64,000 nt of DNA. Origin: an uncultured Bacteroidales bacterium. Its GTDB lineage: Bacteria; Bacteroidota; Bacteroidia; Bacteroidales; ML635J-15. The notes beneath the pieces were generated by a model. The model did not search any database. It was given only the letters and a program-made list of their open reading frames with translations, and was not told the origin of the DNA. Shown here in pieces: positions 57,734 to 61,921 of the stretch. How positions within the stretch are numbered: the first letter of the stretch is position 1; each line of letters opens with the position of its first letter. The stretch spans positions 635 to 64,634 of the forward strand of contig CALJNE010000008.1 of NCBI GenBank assembly GCA_937982115.1, given 5' to 3'. The translations under genes and the position numbers were made by a program.

Positions 57734-59794
57734 TTATTTTTGATTAGCAAGTCTGCTTTTTGCAACATTAATGTTCTGAATAATACTTTGATTTTGTGGG
57801 TCTAAAGCCAGAGCTTTTTCAAATAATTCAAGGGCTTTAATGTCATTGTTCTCAATACCGTAGGTTATACCGATATATTTATAAACTTCGGCATCTTCTT
57901 TAATTTTAGCAGCACTATAAAGGTTTTCTCTTGCAATGTTATATTTACCTATATTCCCATAGCTTACTCCCAGCCTGAAAAGAAGATCAAAATTATTAGG
58001 ATTCACGGACTTAGCTTTTTCGTAATAAAATATTGCAGAATCTGCGTTGGCAATAGTGGAAAAATAATACAGGTTAGCAATTTCAAAATATGATAAGAAA
58101 TACTTAGGAGCAGCTTTAGAAAATTCTATCCAGACCGATTTTTCATATTCGGGTTCGTCAACATTATAAGTTAGAATTCCGTAAGCATTATTCCAGATAT
58201 CTGCATTTAAAGGTGTTTCTTTTAAAGCTCTGATGTAATATTCAAATAGTTTTTTATAATCTCCGTATAATTTGTAATATGCATTGCCGAGTCTGATAAG
58301 AGGTTCGCTGTAATACGGATAGATTTCTATTGCTTTTTGGAAATAAGGAATTGCTTCTTTGAGATATTTATTTCGTAATACTGTATCACCTGCAGCTTCA
58401 GCATCTTCGGAGAGTTTATAAAGTTCGCTGGCATAGGAGCTGTTTCCTTTTGCAGAGTTCTTACTTATTTTTACGTCATTTGCAAATAAAGTAAGATTAT
58501 CTTTCCACACTGTATTACGGGATATGGTTTTAATAGAGAAAAGCAATAAAATTATAATCGAGATAAAATAAGCAGTTATAATGTAATGATTTCGATTTTT
58601 TATCACTAAAGGCAATTTATCTGTTAAAACGTAAGCAACTATTATGCACCATCCCAATAATGAAACGTAAACAAATCTTTCGCTCATAAAAGCTCCGATA
58701 TTGAAAACTATGTTTGAAGTAATTGAAAGTGTTATGGCGTAAAATAATATACCGTACGAAAAAATACTTTTTTTTCGTAATCCGTAAATTGCAATAAATC
58801 CTAAAGCTAAATAAATTATTAAACTCAAAATAGCTCTCCATTCGGTCCAATTTACTAAAGGAATATGATAAGGGTAATAATCCCAGGTGAGAGGATGAGG
58901 GAAAAACAAAAGCTTTAAGTAAATTAAAAGCGTAAGGAATATGGTTGCATATTTTTCCGATAATGTTGCATACAGAAACGGGTTATTCATCAATTGTGTA
59001 GCTTCGATGGAAGTTTGATCTTTCAGAACAATAGAACGAATAAAAAGATATAAAGCCGCTCCAAAGAAAGCCGGAATTGAAGCAAAAATAATTTTTCCGG
59101 TTTTGACATTTCTGAAAAAATAAATGCTTAATGGGATTATGGCAATAAAAGTAATACTTATTTCTTTGGACATTGATCCTAAAAACAGAAATACAAATGA
59201 ATTAATAAGTTCTATGCTTTTATTTTTATCAATATAATTTAAAACAGAGTTAAGGGCTGCAATAGAAAACAAGAATGCTAAAATTTCGTCGCGGCTTTTT
59301 ATGTTTGCAACGATTTCGGTATGCAAGGGATGGGCAGCAAAAAGCAATACTGATATAAAGGGGATGTTTAACCATTTGTAGGTTGAATGGAAATTCTTAA
59401 AAAGTTTGCAAAGAACATTATAAAGTATGATTAAAGAGATGCAATACAACAGAATATTAAAAAAATGACTTAAAGCCGGATTCCCTTTAAATGAAGCCTT
59501 AGCCGAGCGGTCAGTTGTATTTTTGCCGAAAAACTCAACTTCCATAGCAAAAGTTATCAGGGATAATGGTCTGTATCTGCCGCCTTCGAGTTCTTTGCTG
59601 TCTTTACCGAACATCCCGGCAAAAGAATCGTAAGCTAAAATATCTGGAATCCCGTCAATTCCCTTTTGAACAAATTCATTTTTCCAGTAAGTAGCTTTGT
59701 CGTCGAGAGCGTACTTGTGCCCAATGGTATTGGCATACAATAAAAAAGCAAAAACAAATATTATGATTTTTTCAATATTTGATGAGAGCTTCAT
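57734..59794 (-). CDS. TMTC-like GT-C glycosyltransferase (DUF1736 plus TPR); start MKLSS at 59794
   Basis: YANT.G..YALDD, YRPL, HPLHTE.VANI.SRDE, SKE, YLKLL.FP.PL..DY, ERF.Y, W.DNLTLF, several TPRs. Confidence 0.8.
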   Translation of the reverse strand: MKLSSNIEKIIIFVFAFLLYANTIGHKYALDDKATYWKNEFVQKGIDGIPDILAYDSFAGMFGKDSKELEGGRYRPLSLITFAMEVEFFGKNTTDRSAKASFKGNPALSHFFNILLYCISLIILYNVLCKLFKNFHSTYKWLNIPFISVLLFAAHPLHTEIVANIKSRDEILAFLFSIAALNSVLNYIDKNKSIELINSFVFLFLGSMSKEISITFIAIIPLSIYFFRNVKTGKIIFASIPAFFGAALYLFIRSIVLKDQTSIEATQLMNNPFLYATLSEKYATIFLTLLIYLKLLFFPHPLTWDYYPYHIPLVNWTEWRAILSLIIYLALGFIAIYGLRKKSIFSYGILFYAITLSITSNIVFNIGAFMSERFVYVSLLGWCIIVAYVLTDKLPLVIKNRNHYIITAYFISIIILLLFSIKTISRNTVWKDNLTLFANDVKISKNSAKGNSSYASELYKLSEDAEAAGDTVLRNKYLKEAIPYFQKAIEIYPYYSEPLIRLGNAYYKLYGDYKKLFEYYIRALKETPLNADIWNNAYGILTYNVDEPEYEKSVWIEFSKAAPKYFLSYFEIANLYYFSTIANADSAIFYYEKAKSVNPNNFDLLFRLGVSYGNIGKYNIARENLYSAAKIKEDAEVYKYIGITYGIENNDIKALELFEKALALDPQNQSIIQNINVAKSRLANQK

Positions 59795-59883
59795 AAATTG
59801 AAATTTTTGCGAAAAATAATAAAATGATTTTAAAAAACTGAAAATTAATAAAATGATAATTTTGAAAATATGAAAGAATTTAA

Positions 59884-59891
59884 TAATTTTG
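59884..59891 (+). promoter_or_regulatory. -7 promoter box for rplY
   Basis: TAATTTTG. Confidence 0.6.
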
Positions 59892-59908
59892 CAGGCTGAA
59901 TGTCGAAC

Positions 59909-59947
59909 GTGTGATGGGGCTTCCGAAGTTTCGGAGCTTAGTAGCAC
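59909..59947 (+). promoter_or_regulatory. Candidate bL25-binding leader hairpin in the rplY 5' UTR (loop E-like motif)
   Basis: GUGU-GAUG-GGGCUUCCGA-AGUU-UCGGAGCUU-AGUA-GCAC. Confidence 0.55.
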
Positions 59948-59964
59948 AAAAAAATTATTTTGTT

Positions 59965-60540
59965 ATGAAACATTTTGAATTAATTGGTGAATTAAGAGAA
60001 GATTTAGGAAAAAAAGCTTCACAAAAGTTGAGAAAAGAAAACAAAATTCCGTGTGTATTGTACGGTAATGGAGAAAACTTACATTTTTTCGTAACTGAAA
60101 ATGCAGTAAGAAAACTTGTTTATACTCCGGACGTTATGTTTGTAGATTTAAAAGTTGGAAATAGCATGAAATATGCTGTTTTAAAACAAATTCAGTTTCA
60201 TCCGGTAAGTGATAAAATTATTCACATTGATTTTCAAGAAATTACTGAATCAAAGCCTGTTTCAATCCATATTCCATTAAAGATAACAGGAAATTCTCCC
60301 GGTGTTAGAGCAGGTGGTAAGCTCAAACAAAATATGCGTATGATTGGTGTAAAAGGTTTAATGAAAGATATTCCTGATTTTTACACAGTAAGTATTGATA
60401 ATTTGAAAATAGGTGATTCAATTAGAATCAGGGATTTACAATCTGATACGCTGGAATTCACCGATAACAAAAACAGCTTTGTAGTATCGGTATTGGCAAC
60501 AAGAGGAGCTTCAGCTGCTGCACAAGATGCAACTGAATAA
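59965..60540 (+). CDS. rplY: 50S ribosomal protein L25/general stress protein Ctc (start MKHFEL at 59965)
   Basis: GKKASQKLR...IPCVLYG, QFHPVSD.IIHIDF, G.SPGVRAGG. Confidence 0.97.
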   Translation: MKHFELIGELREDLGKKASQKLRKENKIPCVLYGNGENLHFFVTENAVRKLVYTPDVMFVDLKVGNSMKYAVLKQIQFHPVSDKIIHIDFQEITESKPVSIHIPLKITGNSPGVRAGGKLKQNMRMIGVKGLMKDIPDFYTVSIDNLKIGDSIRIRDLQSDTLEFTDNKNSFVVSVLATRGASAAAQDATE

Positions 60541-60557: not shown

Positions 60558-61121
60558 ATGAAATATCTCATAGTAGGATTAGGGAATCCCGGCGAAAAAT
60601 ACAAAAATACACGTCATAATATAGGATATAGAGTGCTGGACTTTCTTGCTGAAAGTGCCGGCTTTTCTTTTTCTGATAAACGCTATGGCTATGTTTCTGA
60701 AATGAAGCATAAAGGTAAAACTTTAATTCTTGTAAAACCAACTACATACATGAATTTGAGCGGTAAAGCTGTAAATTACTATTTGCAAGCCGAAAAAATT
60801 CCAATTGAGAATTTAATGGTAGTTGTGGATGATTTATCTCTGGAACTTGGAAAAATTCGCATCAAAGCAAAAGGCAGTAGTGGTGGACATAATGGACTGC
60901 AAAATATTCAAGATATACTCGGAACCGTAAATTATAATCGTCTGAGATTCGGTATAGGAAATAATTTTCATCAAGGCGGACAGGTAGATTATGTTTTAGG
61001 AGAGTGGACAGATGATGAATTGAAAATTTTGCCCGAAAGAATAGAACTGGCTGCAGAAGCAATTAAAAGTTTTCCCATTATCGGTATAGACAGAACTATG
61101 AACTATTATAATAATAAATAA
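60558..61121 (+). CDS. pth: Peptidyl-tRNA hydrolase
   Basis: LIVGLGNPG..Y..TRHNIG, KPTTYMNLSG, VDDL, GGHNG. Confidence 0.98.
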   Translation: MKYLIVGLGNPGEKYKNTRHNIGYRVLDFLAESAGFSFSDKRYGYVSEMKHKGKTLILVKPTTYMNLSGKAVNYYLQAEKIPIENLMVVVDDLSLELGKIRIKAKGSSGGHNGLQNIQDILGTVNYNRLRFGIGNNFHQGGQVDYVLGEWTDDELKILPERIELAAEAIKSFPIIGIDRTMNYYNNK

Positions 61122-61921
61122 TGCAACAAAAACAAAATTATAGAAACTTTGCTTCTAGGTTAGCCGGCTATGTTTCAAATGTCAAGAAACCACGGTGTTT
61201 TGTGAAGTTTTTGATTGCATTATTTCGACTTATTTATCGTATAAAACTTGATGAATACATTGTTCCGACAGGTGGTTTTGTGAGTTTTAATGATTTTTTT
61301 ACTCGAAAAATAAAAACGCAATGCAGACCTTTAAGTGATGCAAAAATAATTTCTCCTGTTGATGGAAAGATTGTTGATTACGGTATTATTGATAAGGAGA
61401 AAAAAATTTTCGTAAAACATAACTTCTATTATCTCGAGGATTTGATTTCTGATAATCACAATCTTAATTACAATTCTTACATAATAATATATTTGTCTCC
61501 GCGAAATTATCACAGAGTTCATACTCCGTTTAGTTGCAAGATAAACACAGTGGATTATTTTCCGGGAACTCTTTTTTCGGTAAGGAACAAAACCGTGATG
61601 AAACGAGATAACGTGTTTTGTCGTAACGAAAGAATTGTGATCAATGGGACATCTGAAAACGGAAATTTTCGTCTGGTTATGGTGGGAGCGATGATTGTGG
61701 GAAAAATAAAATTATCTTTCGACGATGAAATTCAAACTAACATTAAAAAGGGAAGCCGGATTCACAAACATTACATGCCCGAAATAATTATTGAAAAAGG
61801 CGAGGAGCTGGGTTTATTTGAGTTAGGTTCAACAGTAATTCTATTGATGTCGGATGATTCTTTAAATAAGGTTATAAGAGCAAAAAATTCTGAAGTGAAA
61901 GTGGGAGAGGCTATTGTTTAA
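61121..61921 (+). CDS. psd: Phosphatidylserine decarboxylase proenzyme
   Basis: SFNDFFTR, SPVDG, YLSP.NYHRVH, NER, self-cleavage motif ELGSTV. Confidence 0.93.
   Translation: MQQKQNYRNFASRLAGYVSNVKKPRCFVKFLIALFRLIYRIKLDEYIVPTGGFVSFNDFFTRKIKTQCRPLSDAKIISPVDGKIVDYGIIDKEKKIFVKHNFYYLEDLISDNHNLNYNSYIIIYLSPRNYHRVHTPFSCKINTVDYFPGTLFSVRNKTVMKRDNVFCRNERIVINGTSENGNFRLVMVGAMIVGKIKLSFDDEIQTNIKKGSRIHKHYMPEIIIEKGEELGLFELGSTVILLMSDDSLNKVIRAKNSEVKVGEAIV

Follow-up and report, generated by a model that had tools for sequence, protein, structure and literature searches.

The 5′ untranslated region of rplY in the window (the whole stretch of 64,000 nucleotides of Bacteroidales DNA that was analyzed) contains a small conserved hairpin, linked exclusively to rplY, whose core is identical to part of loop E of 5S rRNA, the binding site of the ribosomal protein bL25 that rplY encodes. 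Going by sequence comparison, the element is likely a translational operator that bL25 would bind through mimicry of 5S rRNA, and the hairpin is probably a previously undescribed feedback switch for bL25 synthesis. The initial annotation of this DNA had proposed such rRNA mimicry for feedback control, and the analysis supports this reading, in which the binding of bL25, the repression of translation, and the orientation of the bound protein are what we infer.

The rplY locus and its leader hairpin

The rplY gene (59965..60540, + strand) encodes a two-domain bL25 of the CTC/TL5 type, 191 aa in length, with the Pfam domains PF01386 and PF14693 (L25p + TL5_C). Among solved structures, its best relative is bL25 from the P. 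gingivalis ribosome (9i5t); with the 9i5t protein as a query, identities in the genomes sampled did not exceed 74%. The pth gene (60558..61121, +; PF01195) begins 17 nt after rplY and is probably co-transcribed with it, and psd (61121..61921, +; PF02666) overlaps the pth stop codon. The only ribosomal protein encoded 3′ of the hairpin is bL25. The gene on the 5′ side of the leader is divergent and encodes a TPR-repeat membrane protein. The list of open reading frames held a 737-aa GTG frame (57734-59947, − strand) spanning both promoter and hairpin, which was rejected as over-extended, the start of the TPR protein most likely being the ATG at ~59797. A large group of Bacteroidales bL25 proteins (~216-230 aa; for example, locus L135, 1562-2212) carries an insertion of ~25-30 residues within the N-terminal domain, which binds 5S rRNA, and the leaders of this group share the form GUGUGAUGGGAAAUUAAGG...CUUAAUUUUGAGUAACAC.

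A Bacteroidetes-type promoter is predicted from the sequence upstream of rplY, with a −33 element TTTG (59861..59864, +) located 19 nt 5′ of a −7 box, TAATTTTG (59884..59891, +; consensus TAnnTTTG), whose position would place the transcription start at ~59896-59899. The TTTG box is found 17-19 nt 5′ of the hairpin in most relatives. The hairpin itself occupies 59909-59947 (+) and reads GUGU-GAUG-GGGC-U-UCCGA-AGUU-UCGGA-GCUU-AGUA-GCAC, with its 5′ edge 17 nt past the −7 box and its 3′ edge 17 nt short of the ATG at 59965. These distances are as given in the initial annotation, and the minimum free energy (MFE) fold (RNAfold) returned the structure described there, in which a closing stem of 4 bp leads through a symmetric 4x4 internal loop into an inner stem that has a bulged U. 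In the sequence, the MFE fold, and the alignment alike, the closing stem is formed by GUGU (59909..59912, +) and GCAC (59944..59947, +). It is followed by the internal loop, with GAUG on the 5′ strand (59913..59916, +; RAUG in all members) and AGUA on the 3′ strand (59940..59943, +; invariant in all members), and by the inner and distal helix, supported by covariation, with the segments GGGC, the bulged U, UCCGA, the loop AGUU, UCGGA, and GCUU (59917..59939, +), in which pairing is kept and sequence is variable. Between the hairpin and the start codon is a 17-nt spacer (59948..59964, +) that by sequence and fold is A/U-rich, unstructured, and free of a Shine-Dalgarno sequence, and that is likely the landing region of the 30S subunit. 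The absence of a Shine-Dalgarno sequence is expected in Bacteroidota (PMC10931766). A terminator or attenuator was also considered and ruled out, since no U-run trails the stem and the upstream gene, encoding the TPR protein, is divergent.

The fold energy of the hairpin, −16.1 kcal/mol, corresponds to a z-score of −1.67, and 12 of 200 shuffled sequences were equally stable. The lone fold of 59909-59947 is not statistically significant by itself, and a single sequence therefore proves nothing.

Conservation, covariation, and distribution

A bL25 search over 40 relatives yielded 30 loci, drawn from the genus and from five further families, and the same element was present 5′ of rplY in 30/30, at 8-35 nt and mostly 14-16 nt from the start codon. 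Its conserved form, GUG[U/C]-[G/A]AUG-GG...[U/G/A]-AGUA-G[C/U]AC, encloses a distal helix whose sequence is unrelated between members. The closing stem (GUGY/RYAC) and the loop (RAUG/AGUA) are essentially invariant, and the hairpin varies from 39 to 60 nt in length. The initial annotation had suggested looking across rplY 5′ UTRs for an invariant GAUG/AGUA with covarying flanks, and the outcome was as predicted there, with RAUG/AGUA kept and the distal helix covarying.

A covariance model (R1) was built, and alignment A2 comprises 77 instances of the element, 64 of them distinct. In A2, 91% of cells were paired, compared to 74% in shuffles, and 163 cells carried double changes, compared to 46.5 ± 10 in shuffles, none of 500 of which reached 163; when the pairing partners were slid, only 18-38 double-change cells were counted. 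All six pairs of the distal helix covary among the 64 distinct sequences. In the closing stem, pairs 1 and 2 are G-C and U-A in 64/64 each, pair 3 is G-C in 58, G.U in 5, and A-U in 1, and pair 4 is U.G in 37, U-A in 18, and C-G in 8; the leader of Rikenella microfusus, with GGUAC/GUACC, shows a compensatory change in this stem. The first inner pair is G.U in the window's copy and G.G in most relatives, the corresponding alignment positions (13/74) having G opposite U in 17/64 sequences and a non-standard combination in 44/64, in most cases two opposed Gs and in some a G facing an A. The second inner pair is G.U in 61 of the 64. On the other strand, these conserved G.U pairs (61/64 at the second inner pair, 37/64 at closing pair 4) would be A.C, indicating that the structure forms on the mRNA sense strand. 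Judged by this pattern of substitutions, the leader hairpin is almost certainly a genuine conserved RNA structure. In one Rikenellaceae MAG (L043, ~540-590), the 3′ half, CUGAGUAGCAC, is kept and the 5′ half, CCCGAUGAU, has no matching closing stem; this sequence may be a leader copy that has decayed or diverged.

The distribution of the element was determined by an exact-pattern search (GTGYRATGRG-N14-44-AGTARYAC) over 401 genomes of the order. The pattern was present in 163/401 genomes (100/236 genera), nearly always as one copy, compared to ~17 matches for a reversed-pattern control in the same search. Among 30 matches that were fetched, 26 had rplY on the same strand starting 13-35 nt to the 3′ side, 3 were helix-less chance matches, and 1 was at a contig end, and with coordinates cross-checked by hand, ~89 of 97 matches were located 9-35 nt 5′ of rplY. 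In the window's own genome, a search with R1 found a single copy, the rplY leader. Among named records, the element was identified in 23 Bacteroidales loci, labelled Rikenellaceae, Marinilabiliaceae, Porphyromonas sp., Bacteroidaceae MAGs, and Rikenella, and was not found 5′ of rplY in the records examined from Maribacter, Chryseobacterium, other Flavobacteriales, and Chitinophaga.

A phylum-wide covariance-model search gave matches in 3/401 genomes, a figure that reflects the low sensitivity caused by strict filtering, which left 15 candidates per genome to be scored, and the exact-pattern search was used in its place. In this phylum-wide sample, genuine copies were confined to the same order (6/8 genomes), and the other 393 genomes produced 11 pattern matches, none of which had a helix. 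On the genomes searched, the element is confined to Bacteroidales and absent from other classes, so that the range first proposed, the Bacteroidota as a whole, holds for Bacteroidales and fails for the rest of the phylum, including the Flavobacteriales and Chitinophaga. Within the order, about half of the Bacteroidales, those with a prs-rplY arrangement, are without the element, as are all Flavobacteriales examined, which weighs against the regulatory reading. In element-less Bacteroidales and in the Flavobacteriales examined (L146-L152; L063-L115), rplY directly follows prs after a short A/T-rich spacer; in genome G283 (L155), the hairpin lies within a spacer of ~100 nt behind prs. One genome of another class (G340, contig C1) has a 40-nt sequence, GTGCGATGGGGGTTCGGGGAACACTGGTATCCAGTAAYAC, at four places that fits the search pattern and has no helix, and this repeat probably belongs to an rRNA operon or a multi-copy element.

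Correspondence to loop E of 5S rRNA

The 5S rRNA of the window's own genome contains CCGAUGGUAC...GGGAGAGUAGG (in a fuller stretch, ...GCGCCGAUGGUACUGCGUUCAGCGGGAGAGUAGGUCGC...), and its loop E strands are CCGAUGGUA and GAGAGUAGG (CCGAUGG/GAGAGUAGG), as in E. coli. That the E. coli strands are GAUG and AGUA, a point made when the hairpin was first noticed, agrees with the sequence of the 1DFU fragment (PMC1920249). The leader core, YGAUGG/[G/U]AGUAG, equals the loop E of the organism's own 5S rRNA, with the polarity of its strands toward the hairpin end also unchanged. In E. coli 5S numbering, the internal loop strands correspond to G72-G75 and A101-A104, and the copied pairs are the closing C71-G105 and the non-canonical G72.A104, A73.U103, U74.G102, G75.A101, and G76.G100. 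The remaining loop E pairs are U77.A99 and A78.G98, where the leader has G.U (61/64) in the first case and R-Y, which covaries, in the second. The leader thus does not contain the complete bacterial loop E motif, with its seven non-canonical pairs and two pseudo-symmetric submotifs; at the sequence level, it contains one submotif and the center, GAUG(G)/(G)AGUA closed by Y-G/R. The initial annotation had spoken of half of loop E, and here the mimicry stands and the extent was understated, because the 4x4 loop is followed in most members by G.G, as in 5S G76.G100, bringing the copy to five of the seven non-canonical pairs along with the closing Y-G.

The likeness is local, covering 6+6 nt. Model R1 gave loop E no significant score when run against 5S rRNA loci, the resemblance amounts to only 12 nt, and the leader had no match to RF00001 (5S rRNA), indicating that it is not a 5S rRNA. 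By a rough estimate, the probability that a conserved 6+6 core would match by chance the opposed strands of the encoded protein's own binding site is ~1e-4. The sole variable position of the leader loop, G or A, varies likewise in the 5S rRNA of relatives, with CCAAUGG in 2 of 7, and this shared alternation fits isosteric G.A and A.A pairs. The two genomes with CCAAUGG instead of CCGAUGG are G031 and G027 (L163, L168); G031 has A in both its 5S rRNA and its leader, and another genome, G038, has G in the 5S rRNA and A in the leader.

Reportedly, bL25 occupies the minor groove of loop E and the major groove of helix IV. Given such contacts to helix IV, bL25 may mainly touch the half that the leader does not copy, unless it binds in the flipped, pseudo-symmetric orientation. 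Loop E is pseudo-symmetric, with its center of symmetry at G75-A101 (PMC1976436), and this permits a second, flipped reading of the leader, which lays the 3′ strand AGUAGYAC onto G75-U82 and the 5′ strand GUGYGAUG onto A94-A101. Read in this way, the invariant 4-bp closing stem would take the place of 5S helix IV. The organism's own 5S rRNA (L001 1501-1595, contig C13; L002) has a very short helix IV of 4 bp and a loop D of 5 nt, and helix IV and loop D are likewise short in the P. gingivalis ribosome (PMC12123416).

Proposed function and comparison with known leaders

Given the identity of the core to the bL25 site, a model for the leader can be proposed. The rplY mRNA would begin ~11-13 nt 5′ of the hairpin, the predicted 5′ end, and the core (the 4-bp GUGY/RYAC, the loop RAUG/AGUA, then G.G/U, G.U, and R-Y) would fold into a non-canonical stack like that of loop E. 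When in excess over free 5S rRNA, bL25 would bind the leader as a decoy, and the bound, stabilized hairpin, ~15 nt from the AUG, would block or trap the 30S subunit, resulting in less translation of rplY and probably also of the tightly linked pth. Competition between a hairpin at about −15 and 30S loading is proposed by analogy with E. coli, where bL25 represses its own translation via a hairpin before a weak ribosome-binding site (PMC4408793, PMC10931766). We lean, with some reserve, toward the more specific view that this would be the first autoregulatory operator for a long two-domain (CTC/TL5-type) bL25, a minimal copy of loop E, maybe bound in the flipped orientation, that would block the 30S subunit on an mRNA with no Shine-Dalgarno sequence.

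The alternatives differ in how much of this model they retain. A chance hairpin, the reading to which the z-score of −1.67 would point, is refuted by the conservation, the covariation, and the positional specificity of the element, and its probability is negligible. Very improbable, too, is a DNA-level palindrome, such as a transcription-factor operator beside the promoter; the hairpin does lie 17-19 nt 3′ of the −7 box, but its distal arm conserves pairing and not sequence, its conserved G.U pairs form on the sense strand only, and the GAUG/AGUA loop, being asymmetric, does not make a palindrome.

The other two alternatives accept an RNA structure. In one, the leader would be a 5′ stabilizer or translation element that bL25 does not recognize, its loop E module being read by another factor or serving an architectural role. 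Submotifs of loop E recur in many RNAs, and the likeness to 5S rRNA is partial, at 6+6 nt only; set against this, the element is restricted to the region before rplY, with one copy per genome, in ~100 genera, and its invariant nucleotides match the site bound by the product of the gene that it precedes, a coincidence with the low chance probability estimated above, so that we regard this explanation as unlikely. In the other, which we consider rather improbable, bL25 would bind the hairpin, and the effect would be to control how the mRNA decays from its 5′ end or to store bL25 locally. A distance of ~11-13 nt from the predicted 5′ end is typical of stabilizing 5′ hairpins, and the spacing to the AUG widens to 29-35 nt in a few lineages, but the tight clustering of that spacing at 14-16 nt fits competition with the 30S subunit, and in the E. 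coli precedent control acts on translation. We prefer the reading in which bL25 represses translation.

The element was proposed to be undescribed, and this held: Rfam 15 returned nothing relevant for the leader at E ≤ 10 or for the whole window at gathering thresholds, and a full-text search of the literature did not find a Bacteroidales rplY leader element. A survey of 20 candidate leaders (Eckert & Weinberg 2020, PMC7247131) includes an L25 leader for Enterobacteria only and none for Bacteroidetes. Three features of a ribosomal-protein leader are present: a conserved structure backed by covariation, a location in the 5′ UTR between the promoter (predicted, like the transcription start, from the −7 box) and the start codon of a ribosomal protein, and likeness to the rRNA site of that protein. 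Among ribosomal-protein leaders, the element forms a new class with a distinct structure. If the proposed function is correct, autoregulation by bL25 extends to the two-domain protein and to the Bacteroidales, a large order whose hits carry labels such as Porphyromonas, Rikenella, and Bacteroidaceae. The leader also offers a natural loop E module of 40 nt for studying RNA recognition by bL25 and a model for translational operators on mRNAs that have no Shine-Dalgarno sequence, and its covariance model could join genome annotation.

The closest known system by function is the rplY leader of E. coli and other enterobacteria (Aseev, Bylinkina & Boni 2015, PMC4408793), which likewise places a 5′ UTR hairpin before a weak ribosome-binding site. 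Autogenous repression by bL25 has been demonstrated for the enterobacterial leader and is proposed here for that of Bacteroidales. As had been noted at the outset, the known leader looks different: its operator hairpin, HII, is unlike loop E according to the authors (PMC4408793) and is structurally unrelated to the Bacteroidales hairpin. The enterobacterial leader has the hairpins HI and HII and a GAGA Shine-Dalgarno-like element, whereas the Bacteroidales spacer is A/U-rich with neither GAGA nor a Shine-Dalgarno sequence, and the window's element does not belong to the enterobacterial L25 leader class. The proteins differ as well, a short single-domain bL25 accompanying the enterobacterial leader and a two-domain bL25 the Bacteroidales one; according to a 2024 review, the features of bL25 autoregulation occur only in species with a short bL25 (PMC10931766).

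In its core, the leader is closest to 5S loop E and helices IV/V, the bL25/TL5 site (1DFU, 9i5t), with which it shares the Y-G closing pair and the succession G/A.A, A.U, U.G, G.A, and G.G, and from which it differs in the last two non-canonical pairs and the flanking helices. In its general design, it resembles the rRNA-mimic leaders of other ribosomal proteins (L1, L20, S8, S15, S6:S18), in which a small 5′ UTR structure copies nucleotides of the rRNA site. The Bacteroidales rplY leader differs from these in copying rRNA sequence with unusual literalness, and it is an unusually clear case of rRNA mimicry at the sequence level.
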